Notes: generated by a model from the letters alone, not told the origin. A stretch of 63,994 nucleotides of DNA, filler included, from Basidioascus undulatus (GCA_000826855.1; 4 parts of 4 records of this genome joined end to end with filler, not necessarily neighbours in it); one strand, 5' to 3'; numbered from the whole stretch's first letter, positions 16,077 through 48,460 are shown. Translations and numbers: made by a program.

Positions 16077-16176
16077 NNNNNNNNNNNNNNNNNNNNNNNN
16101 NNNNNNNNNNNNNNNNNNNNTTAATTAATTAANNNNNNNNNNNNNNNNNNNNNNNNNNNNNNNNNNNNNNNNNNNN
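16077..16176. other. Artificial contig linker N44-TTAATTAATTAA-N44
   Basis: Exactly 100 nt with a six-frame stop linker in the middle. Confidence 0.99.
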
Positions 16177-20665: not shown

Positions 20666-23600
20666 ATGGCACCAAGAACAGTACGAATTTTCCTCCCGGA
20701 TCGCCCATATCCTCTTGCTGAATCCAGCCTCACGCCAGCTGCGCCTTCCGTTCCACTTCCAAATCCTCCGCGACCTTGTCCCCGTCCCACCCTCACCCGA
20801 TGCTCTTCCTCCTCCCTCAGACGACGAATCCGACGACGCTCAGTCCGAGGGCCCAATAGACCGGGACCCCTCCGGCCTGCTCATCCTCGCCCGCGGACTC
20901 GGGCTCAGGCGCATCGTCTGCGCCCTGCTCAAGATCTATGACGACCCGCGGAACCTCATCCTCCTTCTCAACGCGAGAAGCGATGAGGAGGACGGGATTG
21001 GGGACCTCATGGGGACTATGGGGGTGAGGAGGCCGGGGCTGAGGGTGGTTACGTTCGAGATGGGTGCGAAACAAAGGTTCGTCCATGGTCCGCGCGCTGG
21101 CCGTAGGGTTAAGGGAGACGGAGCCCGTGATCGCAATGGAAGGGATGAAGGCTCATTAATTTATGACTATTCCAGAGAGGATCTCTACCGCCAAGGCGGC
21201 TTGATCTCGGTCACATCCCGCATCCTCGTCGTTGACATGCTGAGCAAGACGATACCGACCAACCTCATCACGGGCCTCGTCGTTCTTCACGCAGAACAGT
21301 GCGTCCAGCCTCACCATAGCGCTGACATACATCTCAGCTCACATCGTCCCTGGTCTTGGCAGAGTCACGCCCACCTCGCTCGAGGCGTTCATCGTGCGCA
21401 TCTACCGCCAGGAGAACCAGGTGCGTGTGCGAGCTGTACGTTCTGCCACGAGCGAAGACTGAAGCATGTAAACGCGCAGGAGGGGTTCTTGAAAGCCTTT
21501 TCGGATCAGCCCGAGTCCTTCACTGCGGGTCTCTTGCCGCTGCAGACCGTCATGCGGCAGCTGTCGCTGCGCAAGGTGTGGCTCTGGCCGCGGTGCGTGA
21601 TCCCTAACGCTTTCTTCAGTTTTCTTCAGTCCACTTCTGGGAACTGGAAGCTGATGGTGAATGTCTCCGCAGGTTCCACGAGAAAATCCAAAAGGATCTC
21701 GTCCAGCGCAAGGCGGACGTCGTCGAGCTGTACCAGTCGCTCACGCCCGCCATGCGCGAGATCCAGACGTGCATCGTCGAGTGCATGGAGGCGACTTTGA
21801 ATGAGGTCCGACGAGCGAATGGCGCGAATGTGGGTCTTTGCCCGGTGGAGCGCTATTGAGGGAGCGCTATGCTGATAGGTATGCGCTTCCAGATCGAGGT
21901 CGACGACTTCACGGTCGAGAACGCGCTGTTCCGCAGCTTCGACCGCGTCGTGCGGCATCAGCTCGACCCCGTCTGGCACCGCGTTGGACCGAAGACGAAG
22001 CAGCTCGTCGGCGACTTGGCCGTGCTCCGGCGTCTGCTCGGGTGCGTCACGCTTCTACCGCACCGTCAGCGTCTTGCCCCGCTCGGCTGCTTACCTTCTT
22101 GTAATCCCCCAGCTACCTCCTCACCTACGACTCCGTGACCTTCCACTCCTTCCTCGAGACTATCCTCGCCTCCAACTCCACAACCGCTTCCGGCAACGCG
22201 CGCCAAAACCAGTCGCCCTGGCTCTTTATGGACGCGGCGAACACGATCTTCAGCGTCGCGAAGCGGCGCGCGTACACGACGGGCAACGCCGTGCCGGACG
22301 ACGATCAGGCCGAGGAGGACGAGGCCGCGCGCGAGGCGGAGGAGGACGAGGCCTGGGCGCTCATGTACGAGATCGAGGGCGTGCAGCCCGCCGCCGCCCG
22401 CGCCGCGCCGCGCCGCTCGGGACGAAGGAGGGGATGGCTGCCCCCCGGCGTGGAGCCTGTGCTCGAGGAGCTGCCCAAGTGGGGGCTCCTCGCGGACGTG
22501 CTGGAGGAGATCGAGAACATGATTCATTTCCAGCCGCCTCGAGAAGGTGCGGCCTTCGGAAATTCCCATTTGATCGCATCCCCTTGGCCCAACTGACGTT
22601 TGTGACGCTACAGACGCCCCCGGCTCACAGACGGTCCTCGTCATGTGCGAGTCCGACCGGACCGTCTCGCAGCTGCGCGAGTACCTCTCTTCGCGCGCCG
22701 ACTCCTCTCCCTCTTCCTCCTCGACCGAATCGCCCGGCCGGCCCATGATGGAGCGCCTCCTCCGCGAGCACTTCTTCTGGAAGGGCGGACTCGGCACGCT
22801 CTCGCGCAACCTCAAGGCTGCCTCTTCCTCTTCCTCCTCCTCGTCGAGGCCGCAGCAGCAGATGCAGCAGTCCGCGGCGCTCAAGCGCAAGGACGAGTAC
22901 CGGCGCGGGCAGCAGCCGTCGAACAAGCGACGGAGAGTCCGCGGAGGGAGCGTCGCGGCTGCGGTTACGCCTGCGCGGAAGAAGGGCGGGGCGAGGGACG
23001 ACGAGGATGTGGGGAGGGAGGCGACGGCGCTGGAAGAGGAGGCGGGCGGGATTGCGGACTTGTGCGTCTTCCCCCCTCACGCTCATCTACGACAACGCTC
23101 ACGCCGATCCTGGCCCGCAGCATCGCCGCGACCCAGCGCGCCGGCTGGCCAGCACCACCCAGCGGTCCCCTCTCCCCAAACGGCGAGCTCGGGTCTACCT
23201 CGACCAGCGCGGACGGAGGCCTCGGCCCGCCCGCTGCCCCGCTGCCCATCTTCACCCACGACTTCTCCGAGATGGACTTCGACACGTCGTTCGGCCTCCT
23301 CGCGCCAGAGCAGACGGTCGTCATCCGCCCGTACCGCGGCGAGGACGACGACCAGGTCCTCGCCGAGCTTCGCCCGCGCTACATCGTCATGTATGATCCG
23401 GACCCGGCGTTCGTGCGGAGGATCGAGGTGCGTTCGAGTTTCCCCATGTTGGTGTCCGGTAAACGGACGACTGACAGACTGGGGCCTGCCGCGGAGGGCA
23501 GATCTACCGCTCGAGCAATCCTGGACTCGGCGTGCGGGTCTACTTCATGATGTACGGCGACTCCGTCGAGGAACAGCGGTACCTTTCGGGATTGCGGAAG

Positions 23601-24780
23601 GAGAAGGACGCGTTTGAGCGCCTTATCCGCGAGAAGGGAGTGCGTCGTCCCATTCATGCATTTCCGCTGGCGGTTCACGCTGATGCTTGTAGTACTTCAG
23701 ACGATGCTTCTGCCCCTGCTCGGCAATTCAGTCGACACGCGCGGAGATGACCAGCTACTCACCGCGCTCTCGGCGCGCATTGCCGGCGGACAGCGGCAGG
23801 GCAACAAGGCGCCTCCTCGGGTACGCTTCCCATGCACGATCCTGCTCAAGACTCTGCCGACTGAGAGCGCCGCGGTTCACATCAGGTCATCGTCGACATC
23901 CGCGAGTTCCGCTCGTCCCTACCCGGCCTGCTGCACAAAGCCAACATGGAGATCCTCCCCGCGACGCTGACGGTCGGCGACTACATCCTGGACCCCACGA
24001 TGTGCGTCGAGCGCAAGAGCATTCCGGACTTGATACAGAGTTTCAATTCGGGGAGATTGTGAGCGCTTCGGTCCGCTGTCGTCGAGCTGCTTGATTTTGT
24101 GTTGACGCGCGATTGTGGGTCCAGATACACGCAGTGCGAAATCATGTCAACGCACTACAAGACTCCTATCCTGCTCATCGAGTTCGAGGAGAACAAGTCC
24201 TTTTCGCTCGAGGTACTCTCGTTCCCAGACTCGCATTCTCCACCGGACGCTGAGCTCACCCCTCTCCCTCCAGACAATCGCCGATGCAAAGACGGGCGGC
24301 CCGAAGACTGGCGCGCCGGCTACTCCTTCTCCCAACGCGCCCGACACGGACATCCAAGCAAAGCTCGTCCTTCTCACGCTCGCCTTCCCGCGCCTACGCA
24401 TCCTTTGGTCGTCCTCGCCGCACATCACGGCCGACATGTTCGCGGACCTGAAGCTGAACAGGGACGAGCCTGACCTCGCGCGCGCCGTCTCCGTCGGCGC
24501 AGGCGATGGGGCGGAGGAGGTCTGGAACACGGCGCCGGGCGAGGTGCTCCGTGCGCTACCGGGCGTGACCGGCAAAAGCGTTGGGTGGGTGACGGGCAAG
24601 GTCGGCAGCGTGCGCGAGCTGGTCGATATGAGCGAGGAGGAGGTGAGGGAGATCGTCGGCGTCGAGCCGGGGAAGAAGCTCTACGGCTTCATCCACCGCG
24701 ATGTGAACAAGCGACCGGATGCCGCTGAGAACGGGGGCGGCGCCGCTGCGGGGACTTCTGTCGGAGGATCTGGCGCATAG
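20666..24780 (+). CDS. RAD1: DNA repair endonuclease XPF (RAD1/Rad16/ERCC4)
   Basis: [53 protein letters not shown]4 nuclease [46 protein letters not shown]-terminal HhH LRALPGV. Start codon is my best guess; ATG at 20538 is an alternative. Confidence 0.95.
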
Positions 24781-24999: not shown

Positions 25000-27900
25000 C
25001 TATTGCTGGGCTCGAGCCGCCAACTGCTTCTGGTACTCCCTAAGCGCCCCCAACATCCCCCGTCAGCGACTTGAACATTAAGCGTCCTCACCGCGTGGCA
25101 GCAGCATAAACGCACTTGTACAGCCTGTTCAGGACCTGCTTGGCCAAGCGCTCCTTGCCGTCCTTGACTTTCGGGAACTTGCTCGGGAGCTCGTACTTCG
25201 CCGTGCCAATGGTCATCCACACTCGGTTCAGCGGTGTGCCGGGCGGGGCCCCCTGCCCGGGTTCCGTTGACGGCGCTACGGCTTCCGAGTGGAATTCGGG
25301 TCGGGGCTTCCCGACGTGCGTGCAGAACTCTGATGGCAGCAGCAAGCACGTCAGCAGCAGCCAAGCGATTGGCAGGAGCAAGGAATGGGAAACACGCACC
25401 GTACAGCTGCGTAGTGTACGACTTGACACCCGTCGTATCGATCTCGAACGGGGCGTCCGGATCGCGCTTGCGCTTGAGGGAGCCCTCGCCTTCACTGGAC
25501 GGCTCGACTATCGCGGCAGGCGGCGGAGTGGGCGCGGGCGTGACGCCGGGTACTACGCCGCCAGGCGGGAATGCGGGATCGGTCGACGGTGGCTCCGTCG
25601 GCGTCCGCGGGAAGCAGGCGGGTGTTGGGCGCCCGGGAGGGAAAGTCCCAACAGGAGGCGGCAGCGGCGGGAGAGCGCTCTGCTCTGGCGGGTAGCTCTG
25701 AGGTGCGGGGCTCGGCTGAGTCGGCGCGTAGGGCGTGAGCGCTGCAGGTGAGGCGGAAGACCAGTCTGCGCATCCAGAGATTGTTCAGCGGGCGCTCTTA
25801 AAGGGCAGGCAGACGACCAGCTTACCGTTTCGCCGAGGCGCCTCGCCACAACTTATCTCCTGCTGGGGAGGCGCCGGCATCGGCGGCGAGCCGAAGGGCG
25901 GCGCCCCTGCTGCACTTTTCGCTATCAGCAACCGTTGTACCAGAGGAGACTCAACGCGACGTCACGCACCGAATTGGCCTGGACCTCCTCCCGCCCTCTG
26001 CGGCGACTGCTGCATCGGTGCCATGCGCGGCGGGTATGTCCCCTGATCGGGCCATGCCGCCGGAGGTGACTGCTGCGGACGTGGCGGCGCGTCGTACGGC
26101 GACGCCTGCGGTCCGCCGAACACGGGCGAATGCGGGGGAACGGACGCGCTCGGAGGTAGTGGCGCTTGCGATGCAGGCTGGAACCGGTCCGGACCGTTCG
26201 GTTGCTGGACGGGCGACTGCGTCGCACTCCTGCTCTCAGGCGGTGTCCGCGATGAGGGGAAAGGGGGAGCAAATGGGGAGGGGAAAGGAGGCCCAGGCGG
26301 AGGCCTGCCGTAAGGGTCGAGCGGTACTCCCGGCGAGGGTGGGAAGGGTGGCGGGCCGGAAAGGGGTTCAGGCCCGCGCCGGTCCGAGTCGCCATGCCAT
26401 CTCCCCTTGTAATTGCGCGGTGGCTCGCCCCGCGGCGGAGGGGGGTACGGATCTCGGCGGAGGAAGTCAGGCGGGGGAGGCCCAGGGAACGGAGGTTGAG
26501 GGGCGGAAGGGCCGGGGGCGAAACGCGGTGGACCGGGGGCCGAAGAAGGCAACAGGAGTCGCGGAGGTTGTGGTGGACCCCAGCCGCCGGGTGCGGGCGG
26601 AGCGGGAGAGAAGCGGGGTGGGGAAGACGGGCGTTCGTAGCTCGTCATGACCGGGGGCGGAGGCAGGTAGCTTGTTGCAGGCTCGGGCGCCGCATAGCGG
26701 GGAGGTCCCTCGGACGCACTGGGGACCGGCGCGGCGGGCACGGCGTAGCGCTTGGGGTAGCTGCGCTCAGCGTCCACGCTCGCTGTGCGGGGAGGGAACG
26801 ACGAGAACGGCGGCGGCGGCGGCGGCGGCGGGGCCGCGTCTGGGCCGTATGGCGGGAAACCTTCTGGGGGGCCGGGCGCATACCGCCGAGGCGGAGATGG
26901 GGAGCGTCGGCTGGACGGAGAGGGGCGATAGGGAGAAGGAGACTCAGCGGCATGCGAAAAGATCCCACCCTGGGCCGGAGCGTAGCGCTGCGGCTCCATC
27001 GGGCGCGCCGTATCGCCCGGGCGGGCCGGGTGATACCCCGACGACGGTGGCGGCTGCGGCTTGACGTACGGCTGGTACCGGTTCGAGTCGCCGAGGTCTT
27101 GGCCCAGTACCGGTACCGGTGGGGGCGCGTACCGCTGCGGTTGCGGGGCGACGGACGACAGCGGTGAAATAGAGGCGGGCGGTACCAGCAACGGCGGCTT
27201 GAACGGGAAGCGCTGCCCGGCCTGGTTGCGGATGGGCGTGGGGCGGAAGTTGCGCCGCCCACCGATCGGGTTGTCGCTTGGGATGATGTTGATGATTCCC
27301 GCCTGCACGGCGAGCGCCGCGACGGCCTTCTGCGCCTCCTGCCGCTTCGGGAACGTCGGCTCGATGGTGTACGTCTTCTTGTTCCCCGGCCAGACCTCAA
27401 TCGAGAGCGTGCAGCCGTGTTCTGGTCGCCGTAACACAGAGGTTCAGCGACACAAGCGAAAATAAGGGAAAGACGAGACCCGAAAAGACGCACGTCCAGT
27501 CACGCCGTTGAGCAAGTACTCCCACACGGGCTCAAGCGGGCGCCCGCGCGCCTTCTGGCACGCCTGGACGATCTGCTCGATGTGGTTCTCGGCTGCAGGC
27601 CCGCTCGCCGCGGCAGGGTCCGCCGCGAGGTCGTCCCGGTTGAGGTAATCGACGACGCCCTGCGAGATGGCGAGCATGGCCGCGGCGCCCTTGGCCTCCT
27701 GCCGCTTCGCGAAGACAGGGTCGACTACGTAGGACTGCGAGATCCCGGGCGCGTGCTCGACTTTCAGGACGCAGCCGTGCACTGCGGATGTGCGTCCGAA
27801 CTCGTCAGCATGAATTGGGGGACACGTGTGCGGACAAGGGTAGGCACGCACGACCATGATCCACGTCCTCCACAAACCGAAAGACAGGCACGATCCTCCC

Positions 27901-30181
27901 GCCCCTGGCCTTCTGCGCGGCGGTATTCAGGTACACGACGGGGTTCGTCTCGCCCTTTGCGCCGTCGAGCCCCACGCCCTCTTCCAGGGGATTCGGCAAG
28001 CGCTCCAAGAACTGGCCTAGGGAGAGGACCTTTGGCGGACCGGGCGCCTTGGGCTCCGCGTACGGGTCCACGTCCTCGCCCGCATCCTCGTCGACCTGCT
28101 GCGCGGCCGTCGGCGGGGAGGGGTCGACGGCGCTGATGTGACCTAGGACATCCTGCGCCAGCGCGAGCCGCGCGGTCGCGAGCTGCGCGGCTTCGCGCGT
28201 GGCATAGATCGGCTCGACCGAGTAGGAGCGCGAGTGCAGCGGCGCGGGCTCGAGGCGGAGGGCGCAGCCGAAGGCTGTGTAACGGACCAGGCTGTCAGGC
28301 GATGGGAGCTGGGTGAAAGAAGGTAGACGACGCACTGTTCGTCTTGGACTCCGTAAAGTAGAGCCACCTGACGCCCTCTCGCGGGAGGCCCCTCTCCGCC
28401 CAAACCCTCTCAATCTTCTCCACCGACTCGTCCATCTCGTCCATCTCCATCTCCTTCTCCTCCTTGCCCACCTCCTTCGCCGCCACCTGCCCCTCCCGCG
28501 CCGCAGCGGCGGCTGCGGCAGCGACGACCGTGGCCGTCTCGCCCGTCTCAAGAAAGTCGAGCGCGCCCTTGTCGAGCGCGTCGTTCGCGGCGGCGATCAT
28601 CGCTGCGTGGCGGTCTGCGTGCTCCGCCCGCGTCGTCCAGGTGCAGAAGTTCGTGGGGCTGTGGTAGAGCGTGAGGGTGCATGCGTAGGCTGGCCGTTCC
28701 ATACCGTTCCGTATCAGCACAGGGAAAGAGGGAGGGAGGGGAAAGCAACTGACCGCCCTCTTCCCCACTGTATTCGTATTTGGGCATCGGCCGCGCCGCC
28801 CCCCGCGCCGCGATGTTGAATCGCCCTACGGCCGCATAGTCGTCAAAGACAGCCGGCGGGGGTGCGTCGCCGTGCTCGATGAAGCGCAGGACGTGCTGCG
28901 CGAGCGCGAGGCGCGCGACGGCCGTGCGCGCGTCGGCGTACGTCGCGAAGACCGGGTCTACCGTGTATGTCCGGACCTGGTTTGAGGGCAGGTGCGGGAC
29001 GGTCATAGAGCAGCCGATCACTGCGCGGGGGGTGAGCGGGGCTTTAGCACGGAAGGGAAGGGGAGGGTGACACACGGATATCTTCGATCGGGTCCCAGTC
29101 TGGGATCGCATCCTCCTCGCCTACCACACGCTTCAGCGTCTCCTCTATCAGCCCCGGTGCGTCTTCCACCACCGGCACCGGCGCGGGCGAGGAGGCTTCC
29201 GGGACGTCTTGCCCGCTGGTGATGAACTCTTCGAGCCCCTCGTCCCGCGCTTTAAGAAACACTGCGACGCGCGCGAGTGAAGGGTACGCGTGTTCGGCTG
29301 GAACCGCGTACGTTCGCGAAGGCCCACTTGGGGCGCGGCTAAGCGTGAGGGTGGCTGAGTAGACTGTGAGCGCAGCGAGGAGACGGGAGAGAAGCAGCGA
29401 TTGGATCGAGCACACGAGCGGTAGAGATTAGTCGAAGGGATTGAGAGAGCGGACGGGACGAACATGAGCGGATGGATGAGGTGTGAGTTGGCGATGGCGA
29501 TCGGAGTCGGTCGAGGGCGAGGTCAGGTAGTGCGAGGCGAAATGGGGAGAGAAACGAGAATGGTCAGTCAACGGATTGAACGATGGTGAGTATGGGGTAC
29601 GGTGCGAGTGCGCGATCGGGTGCGATGATCAGTGTACTGGCAGGAGGCCGGGTGAGTGTGTGAGAAGGGTGAGGCCAACGTGAGGCGGGTACCGCGGACT
29701 TCAGACACCAACAGAGGGAGTGCAAGGAGGAGAGGTTGAGTGACTATCCAGCATCCCCAGTCCCCAGTATACTTCCGCCCAACGCCCGAGCTGCCCATCC
29801 CCCTGCTGCTGGTCGACAAGAAAGCACCGTTCACTCACCTTCTCCGTCCTCGGCCCGGCTCACGTCAATTCTGGCGGTAGTTCCGTCGGGAAGGTGTGCC
29901 GGGGCAAGGTCATTGATGCGCGTAAGGGTCCGGCGCGCTTCCGAAGTGCGCGGGTCCGCGTCGTCCGCGCCGTCGAGGGTGTTCAAGGGAAGCAGGGGAG
30001 GCGGAGCAGGCGGTGGTGGAGGTGGGGGAGTGCCGTTCAGGCCGGGAATGTCGTCTGAGGGTGGGCGTGAGACGAGAGGATGAGGAGGAGGGGCAGGTGC
30101 TTCGGAGGCGGTGTCGTTGGGAGCGTGTGACGGTTCAGCTTGGGCAGGATCTGCACCGTCGCCGAGTAAGGGCGCCGACAT
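25000..30181 (-). CDS. Uncharacterised protein with 6 tandem plus 1 C-terminal dsRBD-like domains and a long Pro-rich disordered region
   Basis: ATG at 30181. Spliced frame stays open through introns 29364-29838, 29021-29075, 28690-28753, 28275-28335, 27782-27851 and 27422-27493. Repeating helix/[YIFH][GSA][CA]x[LM]x[LVI]/[TS][YW]x[VI]..F.xxxxA..A[VA]A.LA...G pattern. Ends VLNRLYK|EYQKQLAARAQQ*. Confidence 0.8.
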
Positions 30182-30641: not shown

Positions 30642-32248
30642 ATGCCGCCCCGGAACATTGTCCGCTCCGGCAACGCGGGGATGGGCAAGTCCGCCGCAAA
30701 GGACAAGGACGACAGCAAGGCTGCCGCCGACCCGACGCGCCCGCCCCCGCTCTTCCCCGGCTTTACGGGCAAGACGCCGATGACTATTCTGAATGAGCGG
30801 TGTCAGAAAGAGGGGTGGGAGAGGGCGGTGGTGGATACGGTGAGTCGGAGGTGGTGGAGGGGGATGAGATGGGGCGCTGGGAGGTGGCGATGGGCTGGCA
30901 GTCGAGTTGCATAGCATGACTGGACTTCCGACGCATTTCGATTACAAAGTTATCTTCCCCGTGCGCTGACCTTTTGTTTGATGGACCCCCAGAAGCGCAA
31001 AGCCCCCGGCTTCACCGCGCTCGTCACCCTCCGGCGACACAACAAAAAGACGTCCTCAACTGACACCATCCGCCTCGAGCCGCACCCGCCCTTCGACTTC
31101 GCCCCCTCGCCCACGGCGGCGCTCGCAAAGCACTACGGCGCGACGTACGCGCTCTTCCGGGTCAGTGCAGGAGCTGTGTGTTGTCTGGTAGAGTGTTCGG
31201 CTGAAATATGCATTGCTCTCCCTCTTGGAACGGCTGGTTTGGATGGAAGTTTGCGAATGGACTGTCCCTCCATCGAATTCTGCCCCCCGGGCCGAGGGAT
31301 TATTGGGCCGCGCTGGAGGCGGAGAAGAAGAAGGCGCCGGAGCACCAGGCGTGGATGTGGGAGGTGTGTTGGTTCCTCCTCCCCTCCCTACCCCCTACTC
31401 CCATTCTCTCATGCGTCCTCACCTTCCGCTTCGCCACAGGCGGACCCCTTCGCCGCCGCGGCAGCCGTCAAGGCCCGTCAGGCCGCGCGCGAGAAGGCGG
31501 CTGCTGCAGCGTCCGGCGGTGCAGGCGCAAATGGAACAGGCAGCGGGCGCGAGAGCGGCGCAGCGACGCCCGTCAACCATGCGCTCGCGCCCCGCGGCGG
31601 GACGCAGAGCAAGGCGTGGGCGCTGGCTCCTGAAGTGCGGATTGCGCCTGCGCTGCGGGAGCTGGTCGGTATGTTTCTCCTACCTCTGCTCTTCCATCCC
31701 TCGACCTGGTGACAGAACAAACAAACCTCTTCTTGAACGCAGAGTCCACCATCCGCGCTGAGATGACCGTCTTCCCCGACGCGGTCCTCGCGGGCTCGCG
31801 GGACGCAGGCGCCCCATCCGGCACCTCCACGCCCACCACCACCTCCTCCTGCTCTGTGGACGTCCCCCTGCTGACGCGCGAGCTGACCACCCTTGGTTTC
31901 CGCCCCGGGCACGTTCGCTCCGCTTTGTCCTACCTCTCCTCCGCGCGCCAAGCGCTCTCCTCTTCCTCCCCCTCCACCGCGCTGGACCCGCTCCTCCTCT
32001 CCCTGTCCACGCTCTCCGACCGCGACGCCGCGCTCGAGTGGCTCCTCCTCCACGTACCAGAGGACGACCTTCCCCCGCGCTTCGCGGCGGCAGGTTCGGG
32101 TGACCCGATCGTGGCGAGTGTTCATGCTGGGAAGGGCGGGGAGACGCTGGAGAGGAGATGGATGGTTGAGCGGGTGGTGAAGGAGGCGGGGTTCCCGAGG
32201 AAGGCGGTGGGGTGGGCTTTTGGGGAGCTGGAGGACGAGGAGATCGGA
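30642..32248 (+). CDS. DEAH-box RNA helicase DHX57/Ucp12/YLR419W-like, 5' part only (dsRBD-like and UBA-like regions), truncated at contig end
   Basis: PPLFPGFTGKTPMTILNERCQKEGWER..AKHYGATYALFR|FANGLSLHRILPPGPRDYW..ADPF; LTTLGFRPGHV..ALEWLLLHVPEDDLPPRF matches the N-terminus of fungal DHX57-type helicases. The helicase core is not in the window. Confidence 0.8.
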
Positions 32249-32348
32249 NNNNNNNNNNNNNNNNNNNNNNNNNNNNNNNNNNNNNNNNNNNNTTAATTAA
32301 TTAANNNNNNNNNNNNNNNNNNNNNNNNNNNNNNNNNNNNNNNNNNNN
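32249..32348. other. Artificial contig linker N44-TTAATTAATTAA-N44
   Basis: Same 100-nt linker. Confidence 0.99.
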
Positions 32349-48360: not shown

Positions 48361-48460
48361 NNNNNNNNNNNNNNNNNNNNNNNNNNNNNNNNNNNNNNNN
48401 NNNNTTAATTAATTAANNNNNNNNNNNNNNNNNNNNNNNNNNNNNNNNNNNNNNNNNNNN
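48361..48460. other. Artificial contig linker N44-TTAATTAATTAA-N44
   Basis: Same 100-nt linker. Confidence 0.99.

Follow-up and report, generated by a model that had tools for sequence, protein, structure and literature searches.

Non-catalytic proteins with several dsRBDs are well known in animals and plants. Staufen has a five-domain layout with a non-basic terminal dsRBD, DGCR8/Pasha and NF90/ILF3 are nuclear, non-catalytic proteins with tandem dsRBDs and low-complexity regions, and the TRBP/PACT/Loquacious/R2D2 and HYL1/DRB proteins have two to three domains. Our literature search found no non-catalytic multi-dsRBD protein described in basidiomycetes. Here we analyze a gene of Basidioascus undulatus in a window of 63,994 nucleotides, consisting of four parts of four records of the genome (GCA_000826855.1) joined end to end with filler, and the unnamed protein family to which it belongs.

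Like TRBP/PACT/Loquacious/R2D2 and HYL1/DRB, members of this family have non-catalytic tandem dsRBD folds, with basic RNA-type domains, a linker and a non-basic terminal domain. In contrast, they have five to seven domains, no GPxH motif, a longer basic motif and a long Pro-rich linker, they have no sequence match to the solved chains, and the window gene is kept in a genome with decayed RNAi. A typical member resembles Staufen in having five dsRBD folds in which RNA-type and protein-type domains are mixed, but it has no Staufen-specific Pfam match, it has an NLS-like patch after domain 4, and its four tandem domains derive from in-gene duplication of one intron-bearing module. With the Dicer DUF283 domain (PF03368) and the dsRBD-like domain of DHX29 the family shares a divergent dsRBD fold without GPxH and weak-to-threshold Pfam matches, but those are single domains inside helicases or nucleases, whereas the family is a free-standing array without an enzyme domain. 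The likeness to DGCR8/Pasha and NF90/ILF3, which are present among the fold matches, is one of fold and of a probable nuclear-scaffold layout; no WW/heme or DZF domain was detected in the family, and it has more dsRBD units. Cryptococcus Rde5, likened here by description only, is reported as an RNAi-linked protein in which no domains are predicted and which co-purifies with Rde3, a non-Dicer RNase III (PMC6643885); RDE5 is on a list of genes shortened or lost in the RNAi-less R265 (PMC8022950), whereas the window gene is intact.

Gene structure and tandem units

The 10-intron model, read on the minus strand from 30181 to 25000, gives a single open frame of 1372 aa with its stop at 25002-25000 (Table 1). 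The protein consists of six tandem units of ~78 aa, a 560-aa Pro-rich linker and a seventh, unrelated unit. As an earlier note on this DNA had proposed, phase-1 introns cut all six units at the same codon; all are GT..AG, and the codon they split lies three residues upstream of the Cys/Ala at the start of strand 2 (V115, L211, A300, T418, L559 and Q655). Five of these introns shift the frame and the remaining one has an in-frame stop. The repeat and the intron model of the gene are confirmed. The module proposed earlier stands in that six units bear introns, but the structural unit is not equal to the exon: each exon straddles two units, with strands 2-3 and helix 2 of one followed by helix 1 and strand 1 of the next.

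Table 1. Features of the Basidioascus undulatus gene, with positions in the window
Feature	Position	Strand	Description
Whole gene	25000..30181	(-)	11 exons, 4119-nt CDS, 1372 aa, GC3 0.78
Exon 1	29839..30181	(-)	carries the start codon, an N-terminus rich in Pro/Ala and helix 1/strand 1 of the first unit; of all exons the least certain
Unit 1	29218..29932	(-)	aa ~84-163; the most degenerate unit, without basic patch; extra relative to family
Intron 1	29364..29838	(-)	475 nt, phase 1, inside unit 1
Unit 2	28875..29163	(-)	aa ~182-259; no basic patch; extra relative to family
Intron 2	29021..29075	(-)	55 nt, phase 1, inside unit 2
Unit 3	28547..28838	(-)	aa ~272-347; probably family D1 (not rejected); basic patch lost
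Intron 3	28690..28753	(-)	64 nt, phase 1, inside unit 3
Unit 4	28132..28435	(-)	aa ~385-465; family D2 (95/85); non-basic
Intron 4	28275..28335	(-)	61 nt, phase 1, inside unit 4; site of family D2 intron
D2-D3 linker	27943..28035	(-)	conserved, short helix; pattern in 113/127 long proteins
Unit 5	27642..27948	(-)	aa ~527-605; family D3; 83.7 bits; full basic patch 27690-27707
Intron 5	27782..27851	(-)	70 nt, phase 1, inside unit 5; site of family D3 intron
Unit 6	27282..27596	(-)	aa ~621-701; probably family D4 (not rejected); 2/3 basic positions kept
Intron 6	27422..27493	(-)	72 nt, phase 1, inside unit 6
Pro-rich linker	25479..27272	(-)	low complexity; 31% Pro; holds introns 25910-25969 and 25766-25825
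NLS-like tetrapeptide	25464..25475	(-)	monopartite, basic; aa 1264-1267
Unit 7	25033..25427	(-)	aa ~1280-1362; family C-terminal domain D5; predicted dsRBD fold

Four further introns were placed at 25910-25969, 25766-25825, 25330-25399 and 25040-25115. The last has no counterpart in the relatives compared, and if it is left unspliced the protein ends a few residues later. A blind spliced aligner, supplied with no intron positions, put introns 4, 5 and 6 at their exact positions; for intron 1 it found the acceptor but paired it with a different donor, at a low score, and it did not recover introns 2 and 3. This leaves helix 1 and strand 1 of units 1-3 as the least certain part of the model. Spliced five-domain relatives, free of introns, are present on transcript-sized contigs, in agreement with the earlier view that the units belong to a single gene.

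With profiles built from relatives, the seven units score 18-84 bits, while the reversed protein or 200 shuffles reach at best 3.2 bits; exon 5 (unit 4/5) was the query that gathered the relatives, so the scores of units 4-5 are partly circular, and those of units 1-3, 6 and 7 are unaffected. Unit 7 has no detectable sequence kinship to units 1-6 and, as already noticed, is spliced differently, with its own conserved phase-1 intron (25330-25399) in helix 1. That it is a seventh copy of the module was rejected on hhalign (<=1%) and on this different intron. An N-terminal two-helix motif present in 111 of 127 long proteins of the family was not found in the window protein or in P0054, a relative from Pseudohyphozyma.

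Predicted fold and RNA-contact residues

In the AlphaFold model of P0126, a Suillus relative, the alpha-beta-beta-beta-alpha fold occurs four times, and most 10-residue blocks of these domains have pLDDT 88-98; the pTM is 0.61 despite 194 low-confidence residues, which hints at a packed core formed by the four domains. Foldseek with these four domains gave a best E of 4e-7, and all nine matches at E<=0.001 are dsRBD proteins. The best VIA match was D1 against HYL1 (Z 8.6, rmsd 2.1, 70 residues), D2 reached Z 8.1 (rmsd 2.5, 71 residues), and 49 of 50 listed rows are dsRBD-type by title; the DHX29 domain ranks second and fourth in the VIA lists. The exon of unit 7, which lacks most of helix 1, was modelled as beta-beta-beta-alpha and matches the HYL1 and DRB4 dsRBDs at Z 6.7 and 6.6 (rmsd 2.1-2.3, 61 residues), with nothing below E 0.001 in Foldseek. 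The tool itself rates such Z values as middling, and the weight is carried by the uniformity of the match lists. Units 1-6, being split by introns, are linked to the fold via profile matches and not by models of their own. The models support a dsRBD fold for the tandem units and for unit 7, as the earlier note had predicted.

Against Pfam dsrm (PF00035, gathering cut-off 23 bits), one of 26 relatives scored over the cut-off (P0054, 27.9 bits) and five more below it, 5/40 relatives matched at E<=1, and none of nine single window exons matched, the domains there being split by introns. Dicer_dimer (DUF283) gave weak matches in 3/40 relatives and was over its cut-off in P0054. Single-exon matches to DUF4259 and Ribosomal_60s fall in an Ala/Glu-rich stretch and were taken as compositional. 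PDB sequence searches with profiles A1 and A2 returned only low-complexity or chance matches and no dsRBD chain. No catalytic domain was matched in the scanned window exons or in the sets of 26 and 40 relatives, and the window gene model leaves no space for one, which bears out the proposal that the protein is non-catalytic.

Family domains D1, D3 and D4 and window units 5-6 keep a basic (K/R)(K/R)xDAK patch where helix 2 begins. Its three positions are under strong constraint, being basic in 123-128 of 130 D1, 128-142 of 142 D3 and 122-137 of 137 D4 domains. The motif is one residue longer than KKxAK, and GPxH in the strand-1/strand-2 loop is present in 1 of 619 domain rows and in none of the window units; the units are atypical in this respect, and the KKxA-type motif of the earlier note needs changing for this family. 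An acidic residue in helix 1 is conserved in D2 and D4, not in D1 or D3. D2 and D5 lack the basic patch across the family, so the basic residues of unit 7, also seen in P0054, are not a family feature. The suggestion that only units 5-7 keep basic residues needs changing for the family: the patch is present in unit 5 and, partly, in unit 6, and family D1 is also basic. Judged by sequence, unit 5 is the best candidate for RNA binding. Loss of the patch from four of the six tandem units in the window could reflect relaxed selection after RNAi loss. In Loqs, dsRBD3, which lacks GPxH, is described as not binding RNA even with lysines restored (PMC4748816).

A bipartite NLS pattern directly follows D4 in 87 of 122 relatives, whereas shuffling the linker gives 5.3 (max 11) and shuffling locally gives 26 (max 34); the window protein has a monopartite basic patch only.

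A basidiomycete family and the RNAi status of its host

The family comprises 169 matches, nearly all labelled 'hypothetical', across Agaricomycetes and one Pucciniomycotina yeast, with no Tremellomycete protein among the matches listed, and is best explained as vertically inherited, usually single-copy and basidiomycete. Window units 4, 5 and 7 are ~40% identical to relatives, in which the Pro-rich linker has a median of ~390 aa. Our database and literature searches, like the earlier reading, found no characterised orthologue, and the gene identifiers of six relatives had no mention in the literature found, although supplementary tables could list them. A word-index search for longer proteins with exon 6 gave 0/469 candidates, one with P0054 residues 130-560 found only itself among 7998, and a metagenome scan with the window exon gave 0/477. 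The dsRBD-type clusters of an Atlas search, which include Ascomycota 'DRBM' clusters, were all below 0.9 and are leads only. The window contig showed no synteny with 132 kb of sequence flanking the gene in relatives. Neighbours common to relatives did not look RNA-related, as judged by eye.

Ancient duplication of an intron-bearing module within the gene is well supported as the origin of the tandem units. By sequence, hhalign ties D3 and D4 to D1 and D2 with a probability of 97.7-98.9%, and mapping of orthologues and intron positions, as proposed earlier, places the shared intron in all four tandem units of relatives (27/27, 34/36, 42/42 and 34/35 loci). Four tandem units plus one is the commonest layout (66/127 long proteins), and only the window protein and P0054 have six plus one, so that the duplication inferred in the earlier note is ancient but the six copies are a lineage feature. 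Expansion of all six units in the window lineage was rejected (p-AU 0.039). The starting point was a dsRBD gene whose loop between strands 1 and 2 held a phase-1 intron, and this gene underwent tandem duplication; because each exon is flanked by phase-1 introns, copying an exon adds one complete chimeric domain in frame, which accounts for the differing numbers of units (4, 6 or 7) among lineages. The dsRBD at the C-terminus was acquired separately.

In this one fragmented assembly, the Argonaute detected is a pseudogene, with two in-frame stops, frameshifts and only 585 nt from the start to the end of MID; the RdRP is frameshifted, with ~3 frame changes read by eye, some in homopolymers; and no Dicer was found in searches of the genome. 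Searches for PAZ, ArgoMid and ArgoL1 gave no match, but they gave none in any control either. On the co-occurrence with Dicer and Argonaute raised earlier, no working copy of either was seen, in a genome whose assembly is fragmented and in which the first exon of a second Argonaute lies ~730 nt from a contig end. Two genes with a single RNase III and a dsRBD are kept (C2941 and C127), one with an Arg/Ser- and Pro-rich N-terminus. Beside the decayed Argonaute and RdRP, the 4.1-kb frame of the window gene is unbroken.

Possible function

We favour, at about an even chance, a non-catalytic multi-dsRBD scaffold that is most likely nuclear and acts for the most part outside canonical RNAi, on RNA with duplex or hairpin structure. 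The NLS-like patch would bring the protein into the nucleus, where the basic-patch domains (D1, D3 and D4; here units 5 and 6) would hold A-form RNA by its phosphate backbone. Spacing or protein docking, as in type-B dsRBDs, would fall to the non-basic domains (D2; here units 1-4) and to the C-terminal domain, which the Pro-rich linker would tether to a candidate partner such as a nuclease, a helicase or a processing machinery. Speaking against this reading are the missing GPxH and the longer basic motif, the retention of the patch in only two of six tandem window units, the monopartite patch of the window protein, and the single fragmented assembly behind the argument from RNAi loss.

A Dicer or RISC-loading cofactor like TRBP, Loqs, R2D2 or DRB4, whose basic domains would hold dsRNA while a C-terminal type-B domain docks on Dicer, is possible but unlikely; it would persist here through a further role or because its decay lags, or the assembly would have missed RNAi genes. 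RNA-binding domains, a long linker and a non-basic terminal dsRBD parallel the layout described for Loqs-PB and TRBP (PMC4748816), and the top Foldseek rows are Loqs-PB, TRBP and R2D2, as they would be for any tandem dsRBD. Agaricomycetes are reported to have 3-16 Argonautes and 5-13 RdRPs (PMC10282164), and the patch loss in units 1-4 would also fit. However, the family shows no sequence kinship with the solved chains of TRBP, Loqs or DRB, and the decay of Argonaute and RdRP with no Dicer found in this fragmented assembly, while this gene is intact and still similar to its relatives, argues against a dedicated Dicer cofactor and makes the RNA-silencing role suggested earlier less likely. In C. 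deuterogattii, DCR2 and RDE1-3 are described as kept after RNAi loss (PMC4778953, PMC8022950), so retention of the window gene is compatible with a dual role.

The missing GPxH and non-canonical motif spacing, the Dicer_dimer matches and the four of six units without the patch would also suit a protein-protein scaffold whose dsRBD folds, DUF283-like or type-B throughout, no longer bind RNA and whose basic patch serves as a surface for proteins or for localisation; the main role described for DUF283 is that of a module for protein interaction (PMC12663654). We consider this improbable, given that the basic positions are ~90-100% kept in three of four domains, exactly at the helix-2 N-terminus described as the dsRBD contact with the major groove (PMC11309768).

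A role like that of Staufen, in the transport or decay of mRNA in the cytoplasm of hyphae, is very doubtful. It would be independent of RNAi, the five-domain layout with a non-basic terminal dsRBD resembles Staufen, and Staufen dsRBD5 is among the structural matches (Z 7.9), but that match is no better than those of other dsRBDs, neither Staufen_C nor another Staufen-specific Pfam match was found in 26 and 40 relatives, and the conserved NLS-like patch makes the transport role of the earlier note less likely. That hand-picked splice sites created the repeat, or made a single gene where there is none, as the introns 2 and 3 and the intron 1 donor missed by the blind aligner might suggest, is almost certainly wrong, given the exact recovery of introns 4-6, the same intron in relatives, profile scores far above shuffles and the spliced five-domain relatives.

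A distinctly improbable reading is that fungi have in this family their missing counterpart of DGCR8, which would act in the nucleus as a multi-dsRBD partner and present hairpin or duplex RNA to a non-Dicer RNase III, such as the two single-RNase III genes kept in this genome might encode; if true, basidiomycetes would have a Microprocessor-like processing or surveillance route that outlives loss of Argonaute and Dicer. In mushroom-forming fungi the gene is conserved and mostly present as a single copy, and routine Pfam annotation does not see it. It yields a biochemical prediction that can be tested, and a knockout should be tractable in model mushrooms if orthologues are confirmed there. The family also offers an unusually clean example of how symmetric phase-1 exons multiply a domain, each unit still having the intron. 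That the gene persists next to a dead Argonaute points to fungal dsRNA biology outside RNAi.

Gene model and domain units

The fungal assembly behind the window comprises 32 Mb in 2992 contigs, and the gene is single-copy in its own genome. All six introns named in the earlier note are GT..AG and, as it claimed, phase 1, and with four further introns they yield one open frame of 1372 aa. In each of the six, the split codon lies three residues ahead of the Cys/Ala that opens strand 2. Left unspliced, five of them would put the reading out of frame and the remaining one would bring in a stop, so splicing is needed at all six for an open frame. With family profiles as its sole input, a spliced aligner recovered introns 4, 5, and 6 (numbered 5' to 3') to the base, as well as the acceptor of intron 1, and missed introns 2 and 3, so that units 1-3 are less secure in their first halves than the remainder of the model. 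Residues 704-1270 are 31% Pro. Three N runs in the window are contig joins, and genes across them are not neighbours.

Coordinates of features in the window and elsewhere in the B. undulatus assembly (G000)
Feature	Sequence	Positions	Strand
Multi-dsRBD gene	window (contig C2557)	30181-25000	minus
Intron with acceptor matching D5	window	25330-25399	
DHX29/DHX57-like helicase	window	30642-32248	plus
Converging gene	window	~21800-24780	plus
N runs	window	16077-16176, 32249-32348, 48361-48460	
Argonaute pseudogene	G000:C2459	L061:2189-3935	
RdRP locus	G000:C446 (L062)		minus
Second Argonaute first exon	G000:C839 (L063)	~733-857	minus

Judged by sequence comparison, the tandem repeat is real. Family-domain profiles scored units 1-7 at 18.3, 31.6, 30.8, 56.8, 83.7, 51.1, and 59.9 bits, against a maximum of 3.2 bits for reversed and 200 shuffled sequences. 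Pairwise alignment gave z of 5.8-31 for units 2-6 and 1.4-7.6 for unit 1, and unit 7 aligned with no other unit (z -0.7 to 1.4), which bears out the proposed six-unit repeat with a seventh domain set apart. In a tree with the domains of typical family members (D1-D4 and a C-terminal D5), unit 4 falls inside D2 (95/85) and unit 5 next to D3 (93/69), and the other units have no resolved place. Topology tests rejected neither unit 3 as D1 (p-AU 0.57) nor unit 6 as D4 (p-AU 0.65); a single clade of all six units was rejected (p-AU 0.039). Most simply, units 3-6 would correspond to D1-D4, and units 1-2 would be additions.

As a stand-in for the spliced window protein, a Suillus relative (P0126, no D5) was modelled from a 112-row alignment; the model (pTM 0.61) has four high-confidence domains of alpha-beta-beta-beta-alpha topology. 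All nine Foldseek matches at E<=0.001 were dsRBD proteins, led by Loqs-PB (4e-7), with large rmsd values indicating that the domain arrangement differs. VIA-align matched HYL1 (Z 8.6, rmsd 2.1, 70 aa), DHX29 (8.5), and Loqs dsRBD3 (8.4); 49 of 50 rows were dsRBD-type by title, with D3-D4 barely sampled. The unit-7 exon of the window itself, modelled from 15 rows (pLDDT 75), matched HYL1 (Z 6.7) and DRB4 (Z 6.6), with 20/20 of the first rows dsRBD-type; Foldseek gave nothing below 0.001 for it (best 0.027). The AlphaFold-type models thus agree with the dsRBD fold proposed earlier. Pfam found no relevant match in any of nine window exons, and among relatives the dsrm cut-off was exceeded by 1/26, with weak matches in 5/40. 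It gave no catalytic domain in window exons or relatives, in keeping with the non-catalytic protein first proposed.

Family distribution and intron history

A phmmer search of 1.84 billion representatives with exon 5 gave 80 matches; of 8000 candidates scored with a profile, 169 matched, and 120 of these matches were listed. Among the matches listed, named entries are labelled hypothetical, unnamed, or uncharacterized with two exceptions: a Grifola entry named transporter, with an MFS domain, in which two gene models have probably been fused, and a short cluster member that bears the name F-box protein. The species listed belong to Agaricales, Boletales, Polyporales, Russulales, Hymenochaetales, Sebacinales, Cantharellales, Auriculariales, and others, with Pseudohyphozyma bogoriensis (Microbotryomycetes) in addition.

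Among 127 proteins of at least 600 aa (window model included), the layout is D1-D2-D3-D4-D5 in 66, D1-D4 in 45, D2-D5 in six, D2-D4 in four, and a one-off in six. Six units plus one occur in the window protein and in P0054 (Pseudohyphozyma), and Lyophyllum P0010 repeats D2-D4; the unit-number changes in P0010 and P0054 are independent. Low-complexity spacers, one of them RGG-rich, part the last two of the six units of P0054. A two-helix N-terminal motif (P0126 residues 12-36, pLDDT 84-89) is kept in 111/127 long proteins and is absent from the window protein, which has units 1-2 in its place. In a 26-row tree, with one chosen protein left out, species mostly cluster by order, and the window protein, long-branched and without a resolved lineage, falls outside the crown group (support 91/87, best identity 41%). 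In 12 of 13 Logan contigs checked, the protein has every domain at normal length in a single frame that fills most of the contig (P0091, 985 aa in 3088 nt; P0120, 891 aa in 2799 nt), which fits spliced mRNA; the other contig is genomic in appearance.

With a spliced aligner that placed introns freely, we surveyed 45 metagenome loci, which form 24 clusters when grouped at 90% DNA identity. Among covering loci, a phase-1 intron at the window's codon was found in 24/27 for D1, 34/36 for D2, 42/42 for D3, and 34/35 for D4, with eight other calls, each site in at most two loci. GC-AG introns occupy the shared site in the three loci missed for D1 and in three others where the alignment broke off there. 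The GC donor at the D1 intron marks one relative group (L010, L020, L023, L033, L035, L040). Nine loci (L021, L024, L026, L032, L034, L038, L039, L041, L048) form one 90%-identity cluster in which L024, L032, and L034 score low, suggesting a gene locally duplicated and decayed in one organism. D1-D4 are mutually homologous by hhalign (97.7-98.9%), so the module was duplicated together with its intron, as had been supposed; kinship of D5 with D1-D4 was not detected (<=1%). D5 has a phase-1 acceptor in helix 1 in 16/17 loci, matching a window intron when the acceptor alone is compared. Because an exon takes in strand 2 of one unit through strand 1 of the next and is phase 1 at both ends, its duplication would insert a complete domain and leave the reading frame intact, and this may have been the route by which the protein grew.

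RNA contacts, RNAi genes, and function

Canonical dsRBDs contact RNA through a helix 1 Glu, a loop 2 GPxH, and KKxAK ahead of helix 2, according to published work (PMC11309768, PMC4748816). GPxH occurs in 1/619 family domain rows, and the family basic motif is one residue longer than KKxAK. Its three positions are kept in 123, 124, and 128 of 130 D1 rows, 129, 128, and 142 of 142 D3 rows, and 122, 134, and 137 of 137 D4 rows; D2 keeps the last Lys alone, and the D5 patch is acidic or neutral. Of units 5-7, to which the earlier note confined the basic residues, unit 5 carries the complete motif and unit 6 matches it at two of three positions; it is missing from units 1-4. The lysines of unit 7 are common to P0054, not to Agaricomycetes. 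After D4, 87/122 relatives have a bipartite NLS pattern, versus 5.3 with a shuffled linker and 26 with local shuffling; the window protein has a monopartite basic patch at aa 1264.

The neighbouring helicase lies head to head with the multi-dsRBD gene, their start codons 460 nt apart; it has an N-terminal dsRBD-like domain and is truncated by the contig end. The gene converging on the 3' end has a weak ERCC4 match, and we take it to be an XPF/Rad1-like nuclease. Neither was found beside relatives' genes, so we claim no functional link.

We favour, with middling confidence, a nuclear non-catalytic scaffold, and we infer its binding, location, and partner. The basic units would bind structured RNA and the non-basic units, with the terminal domain, would serve as docking sites for proteins, all tethered by the Pro-rich linker, in an Argonaute-independent process. 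That the protein is a Dicer cofactor, one that also has a second role or whose RNAi genes were missed, seems unlikely given the state of those genes. The Piwi profile found two matches at one locus, an Argonaute pseudogene with frameshifts and two in-frame stops, one in the first exon and one in PIWI; just 585 nt separate its start codon from the MID end, where PAZ and MID belong, and both are largely deleted. The sole RdRP locus has, by eye, about three frame changes within conserved blocks, some in homopolymers, with its DxDGD-type motif intact, and is probably decaying. The Dicer_dimer profile gave no candidates in the genome; PAZ, ArgoMid, and ArgoL1 profiles gave no matches, but neither did they in control sequences. 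On the other side, the ArgoN profile picked up the first exon of a second Argonaute, beyond which the contig continues for about 730 nt, all unrecognisable, before it stops, so an intact Argonaute could lie in an assembly gap, and C. deuterogattii, according to published work, lost most RNAi genes and kept DCR2 and RDE1-3 (PMC4778953, PMC8022950). On the proposed check of co-occurrence with Dicer and Argonaute, no working copy of either was seen in this one fragmented assembly, and the evidence as a whole lowers the Dicer-cofactor reading without removing it.

Three loci of RNase III families, with one RNase III domain each in the stretch read (C2941, L054; C127, L057; C1179, L056), are candidate partners. 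Two of them, C2941 and C127, end in a dsRBD, and the C127 N-terminus is Arg/Ser- and Pro-rich. Elsewhere, C1053 (L060) is a DExH helicase with two dsRBD matches, and C678 (L065), with a dsRBD, is presumably a mitochondrial-ribosome-type RNase III-like protein.

A protein scaffold free of RNA is less probable still, and a Staufen-like transport factor is improbable, the window protein lying outside Staufen, as it does TRBP/Loqs/DRB, by sequence, domain number, and motifs. Its working mode may nevertheless resemble that of animal and plant non-catalytic multi-dsRBD proteins (related literature: PMC10328071, PMC12663654, PMC10282164, PMC6643885). Full-text searches of a largely open-access literature, covering main texts, gave no description of the family and no characterised orthologue, consistent with the earlier note, which recognised no characterised fungal protein of this architecture. 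We conclude that the family is real and undescribed, and that its proteins are of a known kind, their domains being atypical.
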